The notes under the pieces are model-generated. The model worked only from the letters and a program-made list of their open reading frames with translations. It searched no databases and was not told the DNA's origin. Below are positions 3,898-24,959 of a stretch of 64,000 nt of DNA, piece by piece. Made by a program: the position numbers and the translations under genes. Within the stretch, counting starts at the first letter, position 1; each line of letters starts with the position of its first letter. The stretch comes from Kondoa subrosea (Eukaryota), in contig BCIN01000008.1 in the NCBI GenBank assembly GCA_039545335.1, positions 941,528 to 1,005,527 of the forward strand. Reading direction: 5' to 3'.

Positions 3898-5520
3898 ATG
3901 GATCTACAGGAAGTATACGCCTTCGCAAAGGAGCTCAGCATACAAGCTGGAAAGGAGATCAAGCTCGCTTCAGGTGCGTGACTCGTACAGAGACTTAGCA
4001 TGCATTGACCGTCATTTGATCAGATAAACGCTGGGCTGGCAGCTCTTCCTTGGATACGAAGCTGAATGTGAGTAGCTCCTTTCAGTATTGGTCATATGTG
4101 ATTATTCAAGCAGTCTGTCGGTATGTATGTTGCAACATAGATAGTTTACACACATAACGTAAACTGGGCAGATCTGGTCACCGAAACGGATCAGCGAGTA
4201 GAGAAGCTTGTTATCGAGTCTATCAAGTCAAAATACCCTGATCATGTCTTTATCGGTCAGTCTTCACCTCGCTCGAAACATGTCTTTGCTGACTTTATAA
4301 CAGGCGAGGAAAGCTATGCTGCCGGAGAGCGAGTCACTCTAGACGATAGACCGACTTGGGTAAGCTTTAACCCTTTCGCTTTTCGCTGGAGGCGCGCTGA
4401 CGAGTCTCAAGATCGTAGATCCCATTGACGGGACAACAAATTTTGTCCACGGATTTCCAATGGTATGCATCAGGTACTTAGGTCTTGTTTGGATCATGCA
4501 GCTCTGAATTTGCTCAATAGCATCGGTTTCTGCGTTAACAAGAAACCAGTTATCGGCGTAGTCAATTGCCCTTTCCTCAATATCATGTATCATGCTCTGC
4601 AAGGTGATTCAAATCTCTGATGCAAATCTCTTTCAAACTCCCTCCGTAACTTTGAATGCTTTCTTCAGGTCATGGTGCTTATCAAAACGAAACTCGTCTT
4701 CCTCTGTCACAACCTTCTCCGCCAGCACTAGAATCCCTCAGTCAAGCACTCATAGCAGTGGAATGGGGTAACCTTCGATCCAAAGCAGGTTCTATCATCT
4801 TCCTTTTTTGTGCTGTCCTAATTGAGCGAATAGGACGTAATGCAGAAGAAATGTGATTCGTTTACTCGACTAGCTGGTGATCCAGCTTCAATTCCCAAAG
4901 GTATCATGGCGCATTCGCTAAGAAGCCTAGGGTGAGTTCACTTCTTTTCGCGCTATTGCTTAATCAATACGAAAATGACTTCTAGATCCGCTGCGATCAA
5001 CTTCTCTATGGTCGCTACTGGTATGAGAAGAACCGTTGGTTGTGTGGGTCTTCTGACATGTAGCTTACAGGACAAATGGATATGTATTGGGAGATTGGTA
5101 GGTCTTTTCCCATTTGACGGCGGTTGCGCTCAATGCCTAGATAGGTTGCTATTCCTGGGNAAAGACTCATTTTGCATGATACTGGCATGAATGGCGCTGA
5201 ATTATTGCATGAATAGGATGTATGCGCAGGATCGGTGATCGTAGCTGAATCAGGCGGAAAAAGTTATGGTCGCAACGCGGGAACGTTTGACGAAACAGCC
5301 CTGCAAGGTGAGAGATTGTCTTACTAATCCCTCCAACTTTTTCTGATAAGGTGGAATAGGGCGACACTTCTTCACTATTCGTGCTATGGAAGGAGGTGAA
5401 GCAGCTCAGGATAAATTAGCTGCCGAATTCCACTCGGTTATAGAGGTTTGTCCGACTTATGCTCCTTCCCGCTCGAATACATAGCCAATGGCAATCTTTT
5501 AATAGGACTGGGAGCCATGA
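3898..5520 (+). CDS. Inositol monophosphatase, housekeeping type (many microexons)
   Basis: [58 protein letters not shown]; stop TGA at 5518-5520. Confidence 0.9.
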
Positions 5521-10225: not shown

Positions 10226-12534
10226 TTACACTTCCTCTGACTTCTCGTAATATCCAGCTGCTGCTTTCTCTTGGGCCACAATCCTGTTTGCTCCACGAGC
10301 CTGTTCGATGATCTCCATAGTTTTGGCTCTTTTTTGAGATGCACGGCCCGGTACACTGAACAAGATATCCATCTGATGACTAATGTCAGACCAGCAACAA
10401 GCCTTGCAGGAGAATTCTTACCTCTTCCAGCGAGATACCTTTTGTCTCGGGCACAAACAGGAAGACAAAGATCAATCCGAGGACTACAGCCGTTCCAAAG
10501 AGAATAAAGACACCGTAAGTGATGCTCTTGACCATGTAAGGGAAGCTGGTGGATGGAAAAGCGAGCTCAGTATATATTGTTATATAAAGACGGAGAGACA
10601 TACGAATAAGCAATGATGAATTGAGCTAGCCATTGTGCCATAGTCGTGATCACAACACAGACAGCTCGAACACCAGAGGGGAAGACCTCGGCACAGAAGA
10701 CCTGGAAAAATGTCAGCGCAAATAAATGAGAGGGTTGGACAGGGTATTTACCCATGGAATGCCGTTCCAGGAGAAGGCATAAAAGACCGCAAAGAGGTAG
10801 ATTGCGACTAAGGCAAAGTATGCTCCTCCGTCAAGAGCTGCCGAAAAGAGAACATCACATCAGCTACGACACAAGAATCTCGAGGCCTTGACATACGAGG
10901 TGGAGCATTGAAGGAATTGCTGACGGCAGAATACACGGCAATATAATAGTGACTGAAAGCAGCGCCAACTGAACCGATTAAGAGAGCTTTGCGTCTTCCG
11001 AGGCGATCAATACCAACAACCATCTGAATGAAGAATCGTCAAATGTGAATACTTCACAACAAGATTGAATTTGCTTACGAAAATGAGAGTCGCGACAGCC
11101 TTGACGATACCGTATATACCAGTAGCCAAAAGACTGACGTTCGTTCCGGTGAATCCGATGGACTTTACAATTGTAGGCGAGTAGTAGCTATGCACATAAA
11201 GTCAGAAGATATCTTGTGACCAGAAAGAGCAACCTACTTGAGAGCATTGATGCCGCTAAAATTTTGGAAAAACATCAAAGCCACGCCCAAGCCTAGACGC
11301 TTCAAGATACTGGGTTGACTCATAACACGGAGCTTGCTGGCCAAAGAAGTTTCTCCTTTGGTGATTGCCAAATCTCCAGCAAGTTGTTGCTCGATCGCAT
11401 TGACTTCGTAATCGATGTACTACCGAAAGATATGACTTTAACATGCGTTCTTTCAAAGAGGCATACAGGCTTACCTCATGATCTACAGGAAGATTTCGCA
11501 GAGTAGACAGCACCTTGCGAGCTTGATCAATTTTGCCCCGTTCAACAAGATAACGAGGACTCTCTGGCTGCAAGATCATAGCCGCCAACAATAGCGCAGC
11601 TGGAGCGAGTTGTAAACCGAAAGTGATACGCCACTGACTATTGGATGCTGCCATAGTTGTAGAGACACCCTATACGTAGCGATATAAGATACGTATTCAT
11701 CTCATAGTCTCTCGTAAGGGGAAAACAAACGTAGTTGACCCAGAAGCTAACCGATATAGGTGAATTAAGCGCGGGGCAAAGATATGAAAAATGCACGACT
11801 TACCCAATAACCAGCCAGAATTGCAGCTGAATCTCAAAGATACCAATCAATCTTCCTCTGAGAGCAGGTGGAGCGCATTCCGAGATGTATAAAGGTACAA
11901 TCAAAGACGAGGAACCAACACCGAGACCGGTTAAGACACGTCCACCGTCTACAGGCGTATGAACGTCAATGTAGAGCACCAGTAGTAGCCACCTGATACT
12001 CACAGATCATGCCAAGGCCAGTTGCAGCAGTTTGGATAGCAGCACCGATAGCGAAAAGAAGACCAGCGATCAGAAGACCAGGTTTTCGACCAAGCTTTGT
12101 AAGGATAGGATAGACGAAGAGTGCTCCGAAGAAGCAACCTCCTTGGAAAGTAGACACTGTTTGGATTGATTTAGGCTTAGGGGAATGTAAATGAATGCGC
12201 GAAGACTGACCGATATGCGACGACAATTCAGTAGCAGTTGCGGCATTGAGTCCAAATCGGCTGCGAAAAGCAGGTAAAGCGATTGTTCCGCCAATGAAAG
12301 CCGAATCGTAACCTATAAAGCAAAATTTAGTGGGCACGAAGGAAGCACGTAAAACTTGGCATACCAAACATAGCGGAAGCAAAGGAGGCCGAGAAGGCAA
12401 GGGCGTATGGTCTCCATCCATACACTTGAGAAGGAGCAATGTGCTCGCTATCGGACAATATTACTTGTTAGCTTTAGGTTGATCAACCGGATGCGACAAA
12501 CTTACGACTGATCTACTGGACTGAAGATACCCAT
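10226..12534 (-). CDS. qutD: Quinate permease (MFS sugar-porter family; QutD/qa-Y-like)
   Basis: N-terminus MGIFSPVE...[68 protein letters not shown] and [10 protein letters not shown] motifs; cluster context. Confidence 0.88.
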
Positions 12535-12562
12535 GTCGACTATTCGCTGATGTACTCTGACT

Positions 12563-12568
12563 GTGGGG
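12563..12568 (+). promoter_or_regulatory. Possible CreA/Mig1 catabolite-repression box (SYGGRG)
   Basis: GTGGGG in the ~180 bp divergent permease/dehydratase promoter. A 6-mer can occur by chance. Confidence 0.2.
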
Positions 12569-12714
12569 AGCAGGTCAAGGTTCAGGGAAAAGCCACAGAA
12601 TTCAAAATGGGGCCTCAAATTTCAAACGGGAAGCGGGCAATAGTTTAGTCGCATGGTAATCTTTTTTTTCTGTTTGCTAGATTGCCTGGCCGGCTGTAGC
12701 CTTGTCAAGCAGCT

Positions 12715-13820
12715 ATGGCGCTCTCTATTGCAACACTTTCATTGGGAAGTTGCCAACATCACGGACTTATCGACAAGTTACGAACAGCCAAAATAGCAGG
12801 CTATGATGCAGTAGAATGTAAGCTCCAATCCCTCATGTCGCGGATCGAAAGATATGAACAACTACATTGTAGTATACTATCCGGATTATCTTGCTTGGGA
12901 GAAAACAGTCATTCCGGGATTGTATGTGGCCGGCGATGAAGCATCTCTCAGGGCAGCCAGCAAACTCAAAAAGATCTGTGAAGATATGAACTTGACGCTC
13001 TGCTTGATGCAACCCATTATGGATTTCGAAGGTTGCTTGGTAGTGGAAGATCGGGAAGAAGCAATGGCCAAAGCAGAAGCCTGTCTACGCATTACTGCAG
13101 CTCTTTCGATCCCTATGGTACTCATCGCATCGCGTTGGCAACCTTCTGTACCCATTTCTTCCGATATCGAAGTGATTTCACAAGATTTGGCTGAACTAGC
13201 TGATTACGCTGCTACCCTACAACCTCCTGTCAAAATTGCGTATGAAGCCATCGGATGGGGATCGGTAGTCAACAGGTGGCAGCAAGCGTGGGAAGCAGTA
13301 CAGTTAGGAGATCGCCCACATCTTGGTTTAGTTGTGGATACATTCAACTGGCTGGCAAGAGAGTATGCGGATCCTTTCACACAAGGAGGCATCAAGCAAG
13401 GAGGTCGAGAGGAGTTCGACGCGTCTCTGAGCGAGTTCGTGCAATGTGTGCCGGGAGACAAGATCTTCTTCCTTCAGATAGCGGATGGCAAACGCTTTTC
13501 CAAACCACTTGTTCCATCGGGTGAAGATCTTCCTCTCTTGCTGCAATGGTCTCGAAAACATGTAAGTACTTCGATTTGTGTCTGATAGACCACGAGCACG
13601 GTTGACTCTGGTTGCTCAGCGACTATTTCCATGCGAAACAGCTCACGGCGCCTATCTTCCTATTCTTCCTATCATTCGAGCATGTCTCTCCTTGGGCTAC
13701 ACTGGACCTCTTTCGCTCGAAGTATTCAACTCGAGTCTTCTGAGCCAAGATCCCACAACTGTTGCTCTTCATGCCAAGAGAGGAATGCAAGGGTTGCAGC
13801 AAATGCTCTTGAGACTTTAG
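12715..13820 (+). CDS. qutC: 3-dehydroshikimate dehydratase (QutC/qa-4-like, xylose isomerase/AP-endonuclease-2 TIM barrel)
   Basis: SIATLSLG, IAYEAIGWG, VDTFN, FFLQIADG, WSR..RLFPCE..GAYLP, GYTGPLSLEVFN; two introns. Confidence 0.88.
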
Positions 13821-14185
13821 AATGCCAGTCAGTGGTCTTGCTACGCAGTCTTTGCATCGCTGACTTGTGTGCATAGCTCGTGGATCACCGGTGCCGCATA
13901 TATAGGGACTTTCTTCTTCGATGTAACATAGCGATACCGTCATATACTTCATTGTCCAAAGCATAGAGATGATCACCACCCAATTGATCGACACTCGACT
14001 CGAGCAGACAGGTTTGATTGAGACATGTTGCGTGACTATATGACCAGTGTGCGAAGTTCTTGTAAAAAAGAAGAGAGACAAAGAGAGAGGCAGAGAGAAA
14101 GAGAAAAAGAGCGGCTTCGAGAGAACGCAGACAAAATTTTCTGCCGCAATTATATACAAGAAGATACCTTCTGTTTAAACCCTGC

Positions 14186-17104
14186 TTAATTCCACAGCGA
14201 ATCGAGACCGCTCTGTTGCTGATACCGATTGAGGAGGTGGTCGCTGTTGTCCCCAATGGGGGAGGACGGTCGAGTATCGCCTCTAACACCCAACCAGGAA
14301 AGCACTTCGTCGCCGTTTGCCCTGCGCAAAACATCAACATGATGTTGGACCGTATAGTGAGCATCTTACCAATTAGCGATATCAAAAGATCCCATTGCTG
14401 CATCTAAATCTATTCCTTCAATATCCGTGCTCATCATACTGTTGGATCTGCCGTTCAAGGTAATTGCACTATCCAGCGGATTCGGAACATTCATCCAATC
14501 TTGTGTATCAGAAATTGGTGCAGAATTCGATGAAGAGGCTTGAAGCCGAGACAGAGAATTAGAGAAACTGGATGTAGACATGATGGATTCACTAGGAGTG
14601 ATTGCTGATGGAAATTGAGCCGGACTAGTACTTTGAGGTAATTGGGATACACCACATATTGGAAGACCTTGAAGACAGGAAATAGTTGTATTTATTGCAG
14701 GAAAAGCAGAGGAGAGCTGTTGTAAACTTTGTATGCAGAGATCGAGACTTTCTTTTTTGGGCCCATGAGCTATCTCTTGCATTGTTACTGCAGCAATGAC
14801 GACGCAGTACTCGAATAAGGCGGGTTGCGAGCGGCAAAGAGAAGGAGACTTGATCAGCAGGATCGACTGATGGAGACTTGTGAAAAGGGCTTCGGTACTG
14901 TTCGAAAATCCGGCCAGCCTAAAGCGAGTATTAAAGTGGCGCAAAAAGAACATATATCTCCAAAACCCACTGAAATTTCAAAGCCAATGTCACTAAAGTG
15001 TGACGAAATAAAGCTAATCCAGTCTTGTTTGGTGGTAGTATAGCCGTATCGCTTAATCGAAGATGTTGCGGTAGTGATGACTCCCACTGTGAAAGCCTCG
15101 CAAGAACATTTGGAATCTACCAAAGAGTGGTGAAATAATGTAACAAGACCTCTGTAACAGAGTACGAACCATGTTGGTGATTGTGCTTGATTGATTGAGC
15201 GAGGTATTGATGATCTTGCAGAGTTCCGAGCCAATCATACTCAGTTTCACTAGCTCTACAAACGTAGACAGCACGTGGTATCGCGCTATGCTAGTTTGCT
15301 GATGCTGAGAAAGCTGAGCAGGTAAAGGTCTCCATAATTCAACTTCTTCGGGGCCGACCGTGGATGGCAAAGGCAACTCTAGAGTTGAAGATTGCATCAA
15401 AGGTGTTTTGCCGATTCGCAGACTGATCAGAGTATCAAGGACCAAGAGACCATAGAAAGTGCGAAGAGCGTGAATTTGATCTTCGCCCTTATAGTAGGTA
15501 GATTCCGCTTTGCTTAGGCCTAGGTCAATAGCCATGTTGATGGCCAGAGCTGACGACTCAGTCAGCGCCTCGACATTTCCCATACACACGGACATTTCTA
15601 CTGACCTGCGTGGGCGCTGGCTAGTACTACAGATCCTTCGTTGAGATAGCCAAAAGAGATTAAGATCAGTGCTTGACAAGTAGGTAGTGACGAAGCTGGT
15701 AGAGCAAGAGTAGCAGCTAGACTCGCTCGCGCCAGCATTTTTGGTACTTCGAATCGCGCTTGAATGTCTGCATTGTTGAGATGAGGTAAAGCCAGGGCAA
15801 ACATGGCAAAGAGAAGTTCTGTTCTCATTCCCGCGTCATTGATCATCATTGATTTGCTGCTGTGTTCCGATTGCATGCACCAGGTTAATACTTTCTGCTT
15901 ATCGACAATTGGCAGGAAAGAATGGAAACCATCTTGCAAATAGGCATCCATAAGCGTTATCATGATATGCTCATCTGGAAGTTGTAGATCTGCGATTGAT
16001 GGTGGTGCTTTGATTTCGACTGGAACTGATAGGCGGTACGGACTGGTCGAATTAGCCAATAGCGAAGCGTATGAAGTAGCACCGAAATCGATTGAAGCTG
16101 CAGGTAGCAGAACAGACTCATGCTTTGAAGGAGAGGGTGGCGGCTGTAGAGAGGGATCAAGAAGCATCGGGAATGATGCTGGCGGGAGAGCATCGCTGCT
16201 TTGCCATATTGGAGGAAGTACATCAAAAATTGTAGGGAGTTGCTTTGGAGGCAAGACTAAGTCGTTCGTAAACAGACTTGAATCCAAAGGAGGCAATTGT
16301 AGGTCCGATTGAGGCGAATGAATTGGCTCTTGAGAGAAAGAAGGGCCGGCAGGTGGTAGAGCGGAAGTGCTTATACGGCGCTTCTTGTTGCGATTAGAAG
16401 TGTCGTCCTCCTCCTCTTCCGTCGTTTTGCTGTCAAGCCATGGTGCAACGATGCTACTTTTCCAAGCTTCAAAGGCCACATCTTCAGATGGTGAAGTTGG
16501 TAGACTATCATCTAATAGCGCAGATAAAGCTGAAGCTAGGTCGGGATAGAGGATAAGAAGGCTGCCAAAGATAATTTGCAAATGTCGTAGCTGGAGAGAT
16601 GCTTGAGAAGCAAGTTTTGAATAGCCAGCCGTAGGCCCTCGACGTTTTGCTGGCCTGACAAAGAGGTAATACGAATCAGCTTTGGACTAATCGCAATACT
16701 TGAGACAAGAAAGAGGCTCGAGAAGTGCGTGTATCCGAGAAACAGTGCGCAAGAGAGCAAGCATGTTGGAGCGAAAAGGACGACAGGGTAGCAGGAAGAA
16801 GTGGAAACTCACTTGGTATAGGTGCAATCGGGTCCTTTACCAGCTGCAAGACACTGTCCACAGGCAGGCTGCTCCGCACTTTTGACATAAATCAGCTTCT
16901 CCGGACAATACTCCAGGCTCGCGGACTCACTCGCATTTCCTGCGTTTGCGCGAGCACGGACTAATGAAACCATCAGTGAAAGGTTTACCGAAACGCTACG
17001 CTCTTACTCGCAGGCTTTCGTGACTCTTTTGCGAGCTAAATGCAGGACAAATGTTGAGCCTGGCTTGGCCAATACAACGACCTGGACGCACTGGTATCGG
17101 CCAT
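14186..17104 (-). CDS. Zn(II)2Cys6 transcription factor with fungal-specific TF domain (QutA/qa-1F-like activator)
   Basis: Spliced microexons give RKRVTKAC-x-PCSRKRRKC...PACGQCLAAGKGPDCTY. Middle homology region: YLQDGFHSFLPIVDK, LAINMAIDLGL, RTFYGLLVLDTLISLRIGK. Divergent from the repressor-like gene. Confidence 0.85.
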
Positions 17105-17307
17105 TCGGCACCGTTTGTATGATGTGTCCGCCTAGCTGACCCTCTTGCGTCGCTCCTCAAAGTGCCGACTCGCGGTGTCTAATCAAAATATTGGATCCCC
17201 CGAGTCCAAGCCAAGCTGCGATTGGCAAGCAGTAACGGAATCCAAGTTGCTGCTAGTGCTGAAGAATATAACTGCGCACTGCTTTCCGAGAAGTCTACTC
17301 AGCACGA

Positions 17308-19793
17308 ATGGATACTGTTTCCTCAAGGTCAGCATCGGAAACAAATCTCCATGGACTTTCGGCGCTGGCATTAGCTGCACAGCAACAAAGTACTGGATGC
17401 TTCGCTGAGGTATGACTTGAGCTGCGCTTTGTGTCTAAAACCTCATTCGCTGCAAGGATGCAAGTCTGATCTTACTGGGAGGAAGAGCATCGGGCAAAAC
17501 CACCATTGGCTTACTTACATCTACCTTTTTGCACTGGCCTCTTATCGACGCGGATAAGCTTTATGAAAAGATCTATCATTGCTCCATTGCCGAATCCGTC
17601 GCGAAACAAGGCTTTCCCTTATTTCGTGATCGAGAAGAAGCTATGTTGCGCAAACTGTTGGATCTGTATCCCCAGGTAAGCATGAGTAAGTGCGTTATAT
17701 TTGGTAGCTGAAATTCTTCGTTATCAAGAAAACGGTCATTGTGCTAGGCGCCGGTATCGTCGAACGTGAAGCCAACAGACGACAGCTTAAATCCTGGGGC
17801 GAGTCTGGGAAACCAGTCATACACGTATGCCGAGATCCGTCTTCGGTTTTGGCACATCTTTCGCGGCGTATATCTCGTTCTACGTATGCCAACTTAGAGG
17901 AGGAATACGATCAAGGTATATATCGCTATTTGAGAAAGGTCTGGCTCGCTGACATGTGTCGTCAGTCTGGCGAAGACGTCTGCCTCTCTGTCAGTAACCA
18001 AAAGTGAGATTGGCGAGAATCGCTTACCCATTTTTTCTCTAGATGTGGAAAGCTCGAATGCGGAATTCTTCAATCTCGAAGCTTGTCTACCCATAGATAG
18101 TCCAGCGTCCACTCTCGCTCTTAAGCCAGTCGAAAAGGCCGTTCGTCAATTCCTGGTTCACATCTATGGCCTGGTACCCTTGGTGAAGCCGTTGGATTTG
18201 AGTTGGACTGCGCCTCGTTCTTTATGTCTAGTCCTAGATGGATCGTCGACGGCAGCTATGGATGCAGAAGTATTAGACAAAGCTTGTGCTGGAGTTCAAG
18301 CGGTCGAATTTCGAGTTGACAAGGCTGATTGTTCTGATGGAATTGCAAGGCATGCAAATGGACATTCGGAAAGTCTTGGTTGGTTCCCTATCTTCCGGAC
18401 ATTATCTTTCTTGCGGCAAAATTCTGGTTTACCAATTGTCTTCACTCTTCGAACGAAATCTCAAGGCGGACGCTTTGCCGCCAGCAGATCCGAATACATC
18501 CAACTTATTGATCAAGCATTCCGGTCATGTTGCGAAATAGTTGATATCGAATTGATCTTGTCGGATGGGGAAATAAACTCGCTCATGAAAAAGAGAGGCC
18601 GGTCGAAGGTTATAATGACATACTGTTGGTCCGATGCTGAGCAATACATACAATGGAATGGTATTGAGGTTCAAGAGATGTATGAGCGGGCGAAGAGATT
18701 GGGTGCAGATGTTATAAAACTAATCAAACCAGCAAGAAACATCTCGGACAATTTTGCAAGCTTGTCTTTACAAGAATCTTTGGCTGACAGAAACGATATT
18801 CCTCTGATTGCTCTCAACTCTGGTGGCCTTGGACGGATGTCGTATCTATTCAATTCGCTCCTCACATCGGTCAATGCAACAAGCGATTTGTCTATTCAAG
18901 ATGAATTTCTTTTTTCGGCTTCAGACTTGCGCCAAGCCTGGCTGCTCAACGGAATCTCGACAGTGAAAACAATACGGTACTCTCCTACCCAATCAACAAA
19001 CAACAACCACCCAATGCAACTCATCCAAAACGCTATAGCTAAGCTCAATCTGCCTGTCGAATGCAAGACCACTCAAGAGCAGATGTCAAATATCCACTTA
19101 GATACGCATTGCGCAGGAGCTCTCGTTGAAATGCAGCGTTCGGATAGCCTTGAGCAATGCTCTGCGGCTGTAGCATCGATTGGCCATGGCGATACAATTC
19201 TAGCAGAATACAAGACTGCTTCATTCGCCGTCAAACAGCAACAGCCTACTGTCGGCCATTCTGGGTTCTATCTTGAAAATCTCCGCTCGAAGGCTATATT
19301 CAATTGTCTGACCACAAACCTCTCTCCCGTCAACGCCATAGGCTCTGCAAGTACCGCAGTAATTGTTGATGCTCACAGCAAATCTCATCGCGAAGTCCTC
19401 TACAGTCTCGCGTCTCTAATGGATATCAGTCTCATCTTCACTGTCAACTGTTCCCCTGCAATCCTCGATTTCGCTTCATCTCTTTCGCTCCCTTCGTCTG
19501 CAAGTCTCCAAATCATACAAGCTCCTTCCCTCGATCAGATACCTCAACAACAGGCGCATCGTTCGCCTAGCATTATTATATTCTGCGACCAAACTAGTGA
19601 ACTACCTCCGGCGTTGGTTGATACACCTACTGGAGGAACAATACTGGCTCTCGGCTCTCAGAAAGGAAAGTCTCGAGCAGACGGTTGGATTGAACTTGGT
19701 TCGGCATCTGTCGAACAGGAATTGGTGGCACTTCAATTCGAGGCTCTCACTGGTCAAAGATTGCCTCAAGGAAACGTCGAGAACAAGGTGTAG
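17308..19793 (+). CDS. qutR: Quinate repressor-like protein (QutR/qa-1S-like): shikimate kinase + type I DHQase + shikimate dehydrogenase-like domains
   Basis: P-loop LILLGGRASGKTTIG, FRDREEAML, VLGAGIVE; DHQase-I-like AVEFRVD, LPIVFTLRTKSQGGRF, DIEL, DVIKL; degenerate dehydrogenase C-terminus. No DHQ synthase or EPSP synthase domains. Confidence 0.8.
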
Positions 19794-19874
19794 GTACAGC
19801 AGCAATGAAGCGGCCCATACAATTGAACATAGATCTTTTCCTTGTACATTAGACACGAGTTTCTTATATAAATA

Positions 19875-20567
19875 TCATGATCTGGCAGCCTTCCGTTCAG
19901 CAGCTCGTTGAATAGCAAGACGAAGACCAAGCTCGTATCCAAAATAGCCGGCTCCTATTATTGTACCTGCACAAACTCGCGCGACAGTACTTTTATGACG
20001 GAACTGTTGTAATTTGATTAGCTGTAGCAATGAATGGCAGAAACAGAGACGAACTTCTTCTCGATTATGCACGTTAGATTGATGTACTTCAATGACAGGA
20101 GTCGGGGTTGCTTCAATTGCGTCATGCAGGGCATAAGAATAATGAGTGTAAGCACCTTTGAATTGATTAGCATCGGCAGATCGTAATCGATCAAGAAGAT
20201 GATTACCAGGGTTGAAAACTACACCCGCCAGACATCGCGAGTATTGTATAAGCTCGCAAAGTTCTCCTTCGTAATTCGATTGCGCGCAGACACTGCAATA
20301 GACATGTGAGATGAGCACAAAATCAGATATCTTTCAAAAGCTTACACCTTAACTCCTAGCTCAGCTCCAAATGCTGTTAGCTTCTCCTCCATATCTGCAA
20401 GCGTCAAAGTAGCGTATCTTCTCAAATTTACGATCAGGTCGAGTCTCAAGACAAAGCCATAGCACTTACGAGCCTGCTGCATCTTCGCGATACCCAAAGA
20501 GATTGTGATTGACGCTGTGCAGGAAAAGAAAAGTATCTTCCTCTCGATCTTTCTTCAGTGCTTCCAT
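19875..20567 (-). CDS. qutE: Type II 3-dehydroquinate dehydratase (QutE/qa-2-like)
   Basis: Spliced product: FLHSVNHNLFGYRE...QSNYEGEL...VFNPGAYTHYSYALHDAI...IEVHQSNVHNREEFRHKS...GYELGL. Confidence 0.92.
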
Positions 20568-20631
20568 TGGGTCAACTTTGCTCAAGCGGGTAACTCCAAC
20601 TTTTTTCTTGAATTGGTTGCTCGATTCTCCA

Positions 20632-21820
20632 TTAGGTGAAGACTTCTTTTGTACTAGATCTTCCGCTTCGATTTTCTGAAAAGCAAACCCTTTAGATGAT
20701 GGTAAGAAAGTAAACGCTGCACATACTGGCTTATCAGCTTCAGCCAGGAATACTCGTACATCTTCTTCGACTTTGCCTAGACTAGTCTTGCCTTGCCAGA
20801 CTATATGGAACTGCTGTCAGCTCCTTCTCATCAGACAAATGGAACGAAGCTTACGATACTGCTGAGCTAAACCTTGCTCAATCATAGCTTCAATACCAGA
20901 GACCACTGTCCAATTCCTATCTTGAGCATTCTGCATCATCGAAGTCCATCTTGGCTGTTTATAATTATCAGCAAAGTGCCAAAGACAGGGCTACCGGATA
21001 TCAAACTCACTTTGTAGCACATTTCAAGGAAATGTCTACCCTTGAAATCATCTTCAGGTTGAGCATGGTCTTTGAGCTCGAGCAAGAACTTGGCAATAGT
21101 GTAAACCATCTTTTCTTCTTCTGTAACAGGATCTATAGCTGGAATAGCACCAACGCCCAAACGTAATCGAGAACCAGATTGTTGTAAATTTGTAGTCTCT
21201 TCACGTGCTTGTTCGAGCGAAGTAAGGTGGATAATCTTGAATTGAGGATAGTGCTTCACCACCGCTGCTGTCTCGTTGGCATCGCGGTTGAGTAAGAAGA
21301 TAGTGTCTATGCCTAGGGACTGTAAAGCGAAGACAGAAGCTAGCGTCGTTCCACCGCCCCCAATGATGAAAGAATAGGAAGGGGAAGTTGCAGGGAAGAT
21401 AGGTTTAGTAGAATCTGCAAGATAATCTTGATATTTTGGATTCTCTTGAGCTATTGAACGAAGAAGAGCGTTACGAACGCCTAAGTAATCTGTATTTGTG
21501 CCAACGAGCAGAGGTTCTTGCTTCCCTTCCTCAAATTCCAGGTAAACAGTGTTGCAGGATCCTATTGCTTTGCTTGCAGGAGCCAGCTTGTCTACATACT
21601 GTAGCACTTCGACTTTGTTAGGCATCGTCACAGCGCATCCGCCAAAATCAGCACGTTTGACCAATTGCTGAAAGCGAGATGATGCAATTGACTTGGCTTC
21701 TTCCAATTCATACTGATGCGTTGGAAGACCGGAGTTGTCAAAGATGTAATTATGCAGAGCGGGAGCGCTGCTATGTGAGATAGGAAAGCCAAAGAGATAG
21801 AATTTCGGTCGACCGTCCAT
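20632..21820 (-). CDS. qutB: Quinate/shikimate 5-dehydrogenase (QutB/qa-3-like)
   Basis: YLFGFPISHSSAPALHN, GCAVTMPNK, IGSCNT, GTNTDYLG, IIGGGGTT, EMCY, GIEAMIEQG. Confidence 0.92.
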
Positions 21821-21974
21821 GTCAATGGATAGATTAAAGATGAAGAGCTTGAAGATGGTTTGGTTGCTTTGACAGGCGGAAAGCAAGAGAGCGGAAGACC
21901 GCAACGCAAAATACGGTGTCTCAAAATCGATCAGCCGCATGTCTCTCATTTGCTAATACAGCGTCAATCTTCGC

Positions 21975-23478
21975 CTACAACGGCCTTTCGTAATCAATCC
22001 GCTCAACACGTTTCCAAACTTCCTTCGCAACCCTTTCTTGACATTGACGAGGCGTTGAACCATCTTCACCCGAACAACCTCGCAGACAAAGATACAATCT
22101 CGAGCCTAGACCTGCAATAGGTAGCGGAGCATCTAGATCCTCGGGTGGGTTAGCAGAGAAAGTAACGCCGCTGTCTTAATGTTAATAACGATATCAAGGC
22201 AAAAGACGGCCACCGCACCCAGCTTCCGAAAGAATAATCATTCCAGCCTGGCAAGATAGAATGAGCTCAACGAATAACGAGGATTCGCATACCGCTACAT
22301 CCCACTCCCTATCAAGTAATTTGTTTTAGAATAGATCACATATTCTGATATCCAGACTTACCAACATCCTCCTTCCCAAAAACAATCTATTGATCCAGTC
22401 GCGACATATGCGATATCAAGTGCGGCAGATCCTAAGCTTCGAATACCATGTACCATACCTGATCAGAGCATTTCAGCTAACGATTGCTTCTAAAGATGTC
22501 GATCCACTAACCGCCTTTACCACCTCGAGAACCATACTGACAAGCCATATTCCAGAAGGACCTCACTTTCCTTGATAATTTCCCATCAAGGTCATCTTGT
22601 CTTTGTTTTCCCCACTGGACATACATATAAGTAAGCTAATGATATACTGTAGAAAGCGATCCTCGACATACTTCACAGGCAAATAAGCAACCTTTAGGTG
22701 CATCGAAAGGAAATGGAGGTGCAGGTGATACGTAAGGAAGCTTGGTCGAATCACTTGTAGGAGGCCAGGAGAAGTGAGGGTTCAGTGAAGAAGACTCGAT
22801 AATAGTCAAGTAGGATCCATGGTTGAGAATTCCAGAGAAGAGAGTCATTCCTGCATTCTTTGCTATTCCACCTAAACATGGAGCAAGAATACAGCCAACG
22901 ACAGGTTGGCCTCTATCCTAATGTGAGCAGAAGCATACGAAGGAAAGGCGGAACAAACTTAAGACAGAGCGCGACAGACTGGGAAGAAGATCAATGGACA
23001 GCAGACATTGTTGAGCTAATGACAGACTATACACCAATTAGGGAAGAGGCTGCGAGTACAGATAAGCACATAGACTATAACAGAAAAGCGAACGTAGAGC
23101 TACTGTGTCCAATTCACCGTGCCGTCGACTGCGGTAAATGAGCAACAGGAAGTGAGACAAGCGTAGCAGCGGACTAGGATCTATTATCCAGCATGGCCTA
23201 GAGTCCTCGACCAAATATCTCTTGCTTCCGCTTACATCGTAGCTCTCTTCACCAATAATCTGATGATCTGGATAACGAGCAAGAATGGAAGAACGGATCA
23301 GTTCTTCGACGTCTGTATCTGCCTTGGTAACGAGATCTGCTGAATTCGCCTTTACTCTTATCGACAATTCTTGAGCGGTATTCCGTGTTCTTGCTTGAGC
23401 TTGTTCTATAAGAAACAGGCCTGCTTGATGTAGGAGCTCTGCAAGAAAGGTATGTGCTTCTATCAAGTCAAGCGACAT
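21975..23478 (-). CDS. qutG: Inositol monophosphatase-family protein (QutG/qa-X-like)
   Basis: ADLVTKAD, IIGEES, WIIDP.DGTVN, EWDVA.AG.IILSEAG; C-terminus GSRLYLCLRG...QERVAKEVWKRVERIDYERPL resembles QutG/qa-X C-termini. Confidence 0.85.
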
Positions 23479-23921: not shown

Positions 23922-24566
23922 TCAGGACTGATTCTCCTCCAGGAGTAGACTCTTTTTGACTATCCAATCAGTTTGTATGTCCTAAGTAGGACAATTCAAT
24001 CAAACTAGCTGTCGAACGAGGTAAAAGCTGGGCTCACACCACCAACATCGAAATCATGTTGACCACAGATTTCAAGGCCTTGTTTCTTATAAAATCGTAA
24101 GGCTTTCGCATTTTCCTGCTAAACGTTCAGCTCTACATACGAGAGCATAACAGATATGTATTACCTGCCAAACACCAAGCCATAGTTCTTCATAACCTTG
24201 ATCTCGAGCCCAAGCTTCCGCTTCTTGCATCAACGACTGAGCAATCCCTTTCCCATGATAATTGCTATCCACATACAACTTTTGCAATTCAACAGCTTTA
24301 GGACGAGTAATGCAAGGTTCAGTAGATCCAGAATTCATTTCCGCATAACCAGCCAGTTTCCCATGATCAAAAGCCAAGATCCAACGACGTTTCGGATCTT
24401 CTATTTCAGATGTTAGAGCCGCGATCGAATAAGCGTCGTTGAGGTATTTATCCATTTGAGCTGGAGTGCATGAATGGGCAAAGCCTTGTCGGAAGCATCT
24501 GCATCCAAGATCGCTGATAGCCTGTGCGTCTTCAAGTGTCCCTATCCGATGAACAATATCGAGCAT
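23922..24566 (-). CDS. GNAT N-acetyltransferase (PaiA/spermidine acetyltransferase-like)
   Basis: ELQKLYVDSNYHGKGIAQSLM, LWLGVWQ-ENAKALRFYKKQG, QHDFDVG...DIQTDWIV. Confidence 0.85.
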
Positions 24567-24959
24567 AGCGAGCCAAGGGATTAGACAGTCTAGGAAACGA
24601 GTTGGACCGATTTGAGGTTATGTAGCGCGACTGCAAATAGCAGAACGGTCGGGACTGTTATGAATATGTTCTTTGATGCGATAGACAGCACTAGACCATG
24701 CAACAGCAAAGAGATACAGAATGATAAGTCGCTGTCATTAGTAAAGATGTTTTGTTGTCTAATGCACACAAGCAGCTACTCTTTGGCAAGTCTTTTGCAG
24801 CTATTGTTGCTTACCCTTGCAGTCACATATCATTCCAGTCTCATATTCTTGCAAGTTATTCAGCAGTGTATTCATCTCATTGCTTCTCTGAGACTGCTCG
24901 AGTTTCTATCAGCTGTGATTATCAGCTGTGATCATTCAGGAAAGGGAAAGGACTTACTT

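Follow-up and report, generated by a model that had tools for sequence, protein, structure and literature searches.

The qa/qut genes are a textbook eukaryotic gene cluster that has been studied in ascomycetes. For this ascomycete cluster (Neurospora qa-2, Aspergillus qutE/dqdA), the parts of PMC12610400 that deal with it list seven qa functions, namely dehydrogenase, dehydroquinase, dehydroshikimate dehydratase, permease, a qa-x/qutG-like protein, activator and repressor, and present dehydrogenase and dehydroquinase as separate genes. According to PMC11381361 the quinic acid cluster is widely distributed in fungi, and the supplements of that paper may well document it in basidiomycetes already. 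Both activities on one chain, as predicted below for the locus under study, are found in plant DHQ-SDH (PDB 2gpt) and in fungal AROM. These two proteins use the unrelated type I dehydroquinase. Precedents exist for genes that passed from bacteria to fungi and acquired introns, as they do for the fusion of consecutive enzymes. In titles and abstract openings of the literature we found no report of a Pucciniomycotina quinate cluster, of the transfer described here or of a fungal fusion of a dehydrogenase with a type II dehydroquinase; supplementary tables of fungal gene-transfer surveys could list the gene.

We analyzed a stretch of 64,000 nucleotides from Kondoa subrosea (contig BCIN01000008.1, hereafter the window), a fungal sequence with many introns and a GC content of about 45%. 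It carries the same seven functions as the ascomycete cluster, the differences being that its dehydroquinase lies on an actinobacterial branch, is 35% identical to an ascomycete-type proxy and is predicted to be fused. At a probability of roughly 68% we read the gene as serving catabolism of the plant compound quinate: it would be the dehydroquinase in a complete qut/qa cluster of a Pucciniomycotina-type yeast, from an old family of Nocardiopsis-kind actinobacterial descent, and most likely fused behind quinate dehydrogenase. The probable fusion is a more unusual local feature than the transfer.

The quinate gene cluster and its make-up

The complete seven-function qut/qa set is linked within 10226–23478 (Table 1).

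Table 1. Coordinates of the cluster genes and of the features within the predicted fusion gene
Feature	Position in window	Strand	Basis
qutD/qa-y-like permease, approximate limits	10226..12534	-	Pfam Sugar_tr in 7 reading-frame pieces; ends by eye
qutC/qa-4-like 3-dehydroshikimate dehydratase	12715..13820	+	Pfam AP_endonuc_2; NCBIfam QuiC partial match
qutA/qa-1F-like activator, divergent from repressor, approximate limits	14186..17104	-	Pfam Fungal_trans; intron-split Cys cluster, ends by eye
qutR/qa-1S-like repressor composed of shikimate kinase, type I dehydroquinase and other AROM-derived parts	17308..19793	+	Pfam SKI, DHquinase_I; top PDB matches AROM; start by eye
qutB-qutE, predicted fusion gene encoding 525 residues in 8 exons (shikimate/quinate dehydrogenase joined by a linker to type II dehydroquinase)	19875..21820	-	Open spliced model; Pfam Shikimate_dh_N and DHquinase_II
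Dehydrogenase domain, fungal AROM-like (exons 21820-21011, 20954-20855, 20800-20727)	20727..21820	-	NCBIfam and PDB matches
Probable in-frame intron at domain junction, 51 nt	20676..20726	-	GTATGT donor, pyrimidine tract, CAG acceptor
Interdomain linker, 26 codons	20598..20675	-	Codon usage
Conserved N-terminal extension block GVTRLSKVDP, upstream of the 20567 ATG	20568..20597	-	Comparison with L001
Core type II dehydroquinase domain	19875..20567	-	Pfam; alignment; nested among Sporidiobolales enzymes in trees
HSVNHNLFG motif	20493..20519	-	Read from sequence; NHNxFG common to Pucciniomycotina homologues
Lid Arg to Tyr, six residues between, split by the domain's first intron	20414..20489	-	
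Dehydroquinase intron 1, 52 nt, phase 2, in codon before lid Tyr	20418..20469	-	L001: same position and phase
Dehydroquinase intron 2, 53 nt, phase 2	20293..20345	-	Homology of environmental relative P0303 starts at junction
Dehydroquinase intron 3, 51 nt, phase 1, in frame	20156..20206	-	17-residue insertion in alignment
Dehydroquinase intron 4, 51 nt, phase 0, in frame	20004..20054	-	17-residue insertion in alignment
qutG/qa-x-like inositol monophosphatase gene, 350 residues, 9 introns, separate gene	21975..23478	-	Pfam Inositol_P; open spliced model

From these assignments a working scheme can be proposed that follows the pathway from quinate to protocatechuate as outlined in the relevant part of PMC12610400. 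The permease would import quinate, the N-terminal dehydrogenase domain would oxidize it to 3-dehydroquinate, the C-terminal dehydroquinase domain would convert this to 3-dehydroshikimate and QutC would yield protocatechuate, with the activator-repressor pair presumably controlling induction.

A comparison locus, L001, comes from a metagenome scan, in which it stood out among the best 80 of 493 loci as clearly spliced and fungal; a scan of viral sequences gave no match. In L001 the monophosphatase gene stands directly before a stand-alone dehydroquinase. The end of the monophosphatase model in the window fits the gene end in L001, at an identity of about 49%.

Several neighbors of the dehydroquinase look to be of a different kind from the dehydroquinase itself. 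For the dehydrogenase the best NCBIfam model is Shik-DH-AROM with 128 bits versus 87 for aroE, both under the cut-off with a partial query, and the top four PDB matches are all AROM. In an Atlas search with the dehydrogenase all clusters among the matches listed were bacterial and none had a Pfam set that includes dehydroquinase; the search is uninformative on origin. The nearest Atlas clusters of the qutC-like dehydratase are eukaryotic, mostly from Ascomycota. By similarity, the dehydrogenase, the repressor and the dehydroshikimate dehydratase thus look fungal. Since these three look fungal while the dehydroquinase is of actinobacterial type, the cluster appears to be a mosaic, in agreement with the original prediction. 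Such a basidiomycete cluster indicates that a single slot can be taken over by a foreign gene in otherwise fungal surroundings.

Further features were seen in and around the cluster. The dehydrogenase has HSSAP at 21770–21790 on the minus strand and NRD in the cofactor loop; related dehydrogenases presumably have H-S-x-S-P at the HSSAP site, and we take NRD to point to NAD use. The gaps between the divergent gene pairs, 12534–12715 (about 180 bases) and 17104–17308 (about 200 bases), are good candidate places for activator binding sites. A frame for a GNAT acetyltransferase lies just past the monophosphatase gene (24090–24617, minus strand), and a second gene of the inositol-monophosphatase family (4141–4425, plus strand) is found about 6 kb from the cluster.

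Start codon and junction of dehydrogenase and dehydroquinase

The ATG at 20567, at which the dehydroquinase had been predicted to start, turned out to be internal, encoding Met 365 of a longer open frame. Upstream of this ATG the frame is open and contains no in-frame Met. Splicing of three ordinary introns joins the dehydrogenase ATG at 21820 to the dehydroquinase in a frame of 525 residues without a stop, and at the junction intron the frame stays open whether the intron is spliced or retained. Immediately upstream of 20567 all 10 residues of the GVTRLSKVDP block match the stand-alone homologue in L001, while 10 of the 30 bases differ, all of them synonymously; in a model of the Sporobolomyces orthologue the block forms a confident strand. 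Exon 3 and the linker show coding-like codon use in the fused frame only, the linker scoring +0.21 per codon in this frame versus -0.36 and -0.14 in the other two. The acceptor at 20801 is required for the C-terminal W-x-G motif of the dehydrogenase, and against a profile of 13 dehydrogenases the read-through version using it scores 19.2 bits compared to 13.1 and 11.9 for its rivals. The synonymous-only block, the strand in the homologue model, the codon use of the linker and the acceptor completing W-x-G together favor a single predicted fusion protein of dehydrogenase and dehydroquinase, which we regard as probable.

The opposing arrangement consists of two separate genes. A different acceptor would cut the dehydrogenase short, and the dehydroquinase would stand alone with its start at 20567 or at a weak ATG further upstream. 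A splice matrix scores the acceptors at 20811 and 20814 at 13.4 and 13.3, above 10.9 for 20801, and both would end the dehydrogenase early; two further acceptors, at the next intron, likewise lead to stops. With about 220 bases the resulting gap would be in line with the other cluster gaps of 155–204 bases. Weak donors can connect the ATGs at 20761 and 20724 to the frame, and every named orthologue stands alone. However, the matrix was trained on only 15 local introns, the early stop costs the dehydrogenase its conserved W-x-G end, and the codon use of exon 3 and the linker is coding-like in the fused frame only. A start at 20567 would moreover drop a block that is constrained at the protein level and structured in the homologue. 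We consider two genes unlikely on this evidence; that arrangement would leave the actinobacterial origin of the dehydroquinase intact. Searched alone against Pfam, the short junction exons gave no match. Two other gene models were discarded: a one-base error in the A-run near 20605, since two reading frames would overlap, and a three-way fusion with the upstream inositol monophosphatase, whose gene ends at 21975 with the same terminal-residue pattern as in L001.

The predicted fusion is seen in one assembly, L001 and all named orthologues being stand-alone. Among the 120 longer proteins listed (374 matches from 8000 scored candidates) there was no fungal dehydrogenase-dehydroquinase fusion; the single named fungal protein among them has 773 residues and contains no dehydrogenase domain, and the three dehydrogenase fusions are prokaryote-like. 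The architecture thus exists elsewhere, with no fungal case among the proteins listed. Prokaryote-like SDH-type II fusions (P0175, P0186, P0204 and P0341) combine the same two activities, P0175 and P0341 in the same order as in the window. Their dehydrogenases are bacterial-type and their dehydroquinases lie outside the clade of the window, which suggests that the fusion in the window arose independently.

Type II dehydroquinases form dodecamers. A fusion would display the dehydrogenase domains around the dodecamer core and could pull the first reaction forward. A natural fusion of a dehydrogenase with a type II dehydroquinase would offer a direct test of tethering for the first two steps of quinate breakdown. 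In 109 of the 120 longer proteins listed (e.g. P0139–P0144, P0159, P0257) type II dehydroquinase is combined with alpha/beta-hydrolase Pfam families, four of them being from named Acidimicrobiia; as a guess, the hydrolase partner could cleave quinate esters.

Motifs, lid and introns of the dehydroquinase

The minus-strand frame with its 3' end at 19875 matches Pfam DHquinase_II with an E value of 3.8e-26 (PF01220, 91.9 bits versus a cut-off of 23.3, the query being the open frame with two of the introns translated as well). A model of the Sporobolomyces orthologue shows the flavodoxin-like type II fold at a pLDDT of 96, with a TM score of 0.93 (target length) to PDB 6cv6. The motifs named in the original prediction, LHSVNHNLFGYRE, EGELCELI and NPGAYTHYSYALHDAI, are all present. 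Their description as bacterial-type rather than fungal-type was too strong: NHNxFG is the normal state of Pucciniomycotina dehydroquinases. What is unusual, and peculiar to the window protein, is the leading His together with the Ser replacing an otherwise invariant Gly in HSVNHNLFG.

Thirteen of the 15 columns invariant in 59 homologues are kept, including the lid Arg and Tyr as well as Asn, His, Asp, Glu, His and Arg positions which we take to be active-site residues. Based on these retained columns the domain is probably active. Both lost columns are glycines. They flank the longer lid, whose kinetics may differ, and with these two changes and a long branch activity may be reduced.

The lid had been described as two residues longer than usual, and a survey of 609 domains bears this out: among the 564 that fit the lid pattern, 561 have four residues between Arg and Tyr, two have eight and the window protein alone has six. 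The two eight-residue lids occur at the same intron site as in the window and are probably annotation slips. The extra residues of the window protein sit right at the intron, making a shifted splice boundary a possible origin of the longer lid; by eye, no GT donor or acceptor restoring four residues was seen at the window locus. The longer lid represents a natural probe of a loop that is constant in length across nearly all family members.

All four introns predicted within the domain, as originally proposed, are GT-AG introns of 51–53 nt, and introns 3 and 4, if unspliced, correspond to exact 17-residue insertions relative to the homologues. The lid intron is common to the window and L001 in position and phase, and L001 has two introns absent from the window. 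Intron gain thus seems to have begun before the two lineages split and to have continued afterwards.

Placement of the dehydroquinase among fungal and bacterial enzymes

The closest named relatives are the stand-alone dehydroquinases of Sporobolomyces, Rhodotorula, Rhodosporidiobolus, Leucosporidium, Microbotryum, Phenoliferia, Meredithblackwellia and Pseudohyphozyma, 55–66% identical to the window domain, and Atractiella contributes a more distant member. We assign the former genera to the Microbotryomycetes and Atractiella to the Atractiellomycetes, all within Pucciniomycotina. These proteins, e.g. Sporobolomyces GAA6007500.1 and Microbotryum SCV73198.1, are orthologues sharing the N-terminal extension, NHNxFG and, in one case, the lid intron. 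They have a four-residue lid and both glycines, whereas the window protein differs by its longer lid, by changes at the two glycines, by its long branch and by the dehydrogenase upstream. In a separate list of 120 proteins, 16 came from named fungi, all of Microbotryomycetes genera, and the other named organisms were all actinobacteria, mostly Nocardiopsis and kin, with 53–71% identity to the Sporobolomyces protein; no ascomycete protein was among them. As the same gene family is present in Rhodotorula toruloides, a yeast used for the conversion of plant aromatics, it can be tested in a tractable host.

Trees were calculated from domains of which 609 out of 639 passed a length filter (P0409, P0416 and P0138 failed), 280 being used for FastTree. 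The first likelihood tree contained 79 rows. For the second, of 72 rows, which was chosen after the first result was seen, 21 long or near-duplicate rows (including fungal P0264) were dropped and 12 named bacteria and 2 partial rows were added. The alignment had about 147 columns and the trees had no independent root. In the 79-row tree the fungal clade (97/79) falls within a group of Nocardiopsaceae and a subset of Streptomyces (96/83), adjoining Nocardiopsis (92/83). In the 72-row tree the fungal clade (100/100), to which the window domain belongs by placement as well as by its N-terminal extension and NHNxFG-type motif, again lies within the Nocardiopsaceae and Streptomyces group (85/83). 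Removal of the N-terminal motif columns gave the same picture, with rough bootstrap values.

Identity follows the trees: the window domain is 53.5% identical to Nocardiopsaceae, 45.8% to a group of bacterial AroQ enzymes with the motif HGINHNMFG and 35.4% to the ascomycete-type enzyme, and L001 reaches up to 73.5% with a Nocardiopsaceae enzyme. Eighteen diagnostic columns of the window domain agree with Nocardiopsaceae versus nine with the HGINHNMFG group, and a short loop is common to the window domain and Nocardiopsaceae. The nearest bacterial branch thus consists of AroQ of Nocardiopsaceae (Nocardiopsis, Thermobifida, Streptomonospora, Marinactinospora) and the Streptomyces subset; in contrast to the fungal proteins these have neither introns nor an N-terminal extension, and those of Nocardiopsaceae show plain NGPNLNLLG. 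In a scan of prokaryote genomes Nocardiopsaceae were not among the titles of the best 80 of 464 loci. A class search over 401 genomes gave best matches of 57–62%, its 20 loci being outside the trees. On these sequence comparisons the Nocardiopsaceae branch of Actinobacteria is the best-supported donor. Since the fungal clade is enclosed by several bacterial branches, we infer transfer from bacterium to fungus. The trees therefore support the predicted transfer followed by intron gain, with the qualification that orthologues across Microbotryomycetes and Atractiella mark it as old and not special to the Kondoa subrosea genome. The family would have entered fungi long ago from a Nocardiopsis-kind actinobacterium, and the dehydroquinase would then have gained its N-terminal extension and introns and taken the QutE role in a cluster whose tested genes otherwise look fungal.

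The likeness of HxxNHNxFG to a subgroup of bacterial AroQ, noted originally, raises the question of a different donor, either the HGINHNMFG subgroup itself (PDB 6cv6 from Burkholderia phymatum; Caballeronia, Priestia) or a chimera with its N-terminus from there. The NHNxFG match is real, some nearby residues agree as well, and nine diagnostic columns are shared; 6cv6 is also the top solved match of the Sporobolomyces homologue, for which no title among the structure matches listed names a Nocardiopsaceae species. AU tests leave a union with this group unrejected (p=0.432, and p=0.155 without the motif columns). However, all three likelihood trees prefer Nocardiopsaceae and none of the three best trees contains the union. 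The subgroup forms a separate clade (100/98) with a longer loop, and a 100/96 branch in the 72-row tree separates the fungal clade from the HGINHNMFG and ascomycete-type groups. Identity to the subgroup is 6–13 points below that to Nocardiopsaceae for every fungal row tested. The window sequence HSVNHNLFG does not match the full motif HG[IV]N[HL]NMFG, and earlier-branching fungal members retain Pro in GPN or GPS. The matching columns are scattered rather than clustered and number 8 in the earlier branches but 12 in Sporidiobolales, as stepwise convergence would predict. The likeness is thus most likely convergent, and a donor in this subgroup appears improbable compared with one in the Nocardiopsaceae branch.

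The ascomycete enzyme was represented by one proxy family, P0331, typed by its top PDB match 3kip, a structure we take to be from Candida albicans. A rival reading is vertical descent from a single catabolic dehydroquinase of a fungal ancestor, rate differences then accounting for the bacterial likeness, or a transfer from fungus to Nocardiopsaceae. In the first, poorer set the AU test, with P0331 standing in for named ascomycete enzymes in unrooted trees, did not reject a clade of fungal enzymes and P0331 (p=0.151). Once proteobacterial anchors were added, in the second set, the single clade was rejected (p=0.0009), and the proxy sits with Gammaproteobacteria (99/87 in the 72-row tree). Successive actinobacterial branches, all without the fungal extension, moreover surround the fungal clade. 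Grouping with the fungal catabolic dehydroquinases, the outcome that would have spoken against a transfer, was therefore not found with respect to this proxy, and we regard vertical descent or transfer out of fungi as highly improbable. P0331 and its cluster mates P0545–P0558 placed with Gammaproteobacteria give a hint that the ascomycete enzyme is a bacterial acquisition as well. More tentatively, then, ascomycetes and Pucciniomycotina might each have acquired their dehydroquinase from bacteria, the former from a proteobacterial and the latter from a Nocardiopsaceae source, followed in the present lineage by fusion, twelve dehydrogenase domains per dodecamer, a remodelled lid and an active-site rim converging on that of a third, unrelated bacterial subgroup.

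In the 72-row tree the fungal clade includes a group with long branches (100/98), made up of the window protein and the partial environmental sequences P0017 and P0303, which is nested in the Sporidiobolales enzymes (99/96). When the N-terminal motif columns are removed, the group nests beside Sporobolomyces (97/95), and forcing it outside all named Microbotryomycetes gave a borderline result (p=0.054). If the host is not a member of Sporidiobolales, this nesting would add a second, fungus-to-fungus transfer. P0017 and P0303, the nearest relatives of the window domain, and the eight cluster mates of P0303 (P0507–P0514) are environmental fragments, apparently cut at introns, on contigs of up to 32 kb. 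Meredithblackwellia eburnea has two members of the clade, P0264 and P0414, of which P0264 is very divergent.
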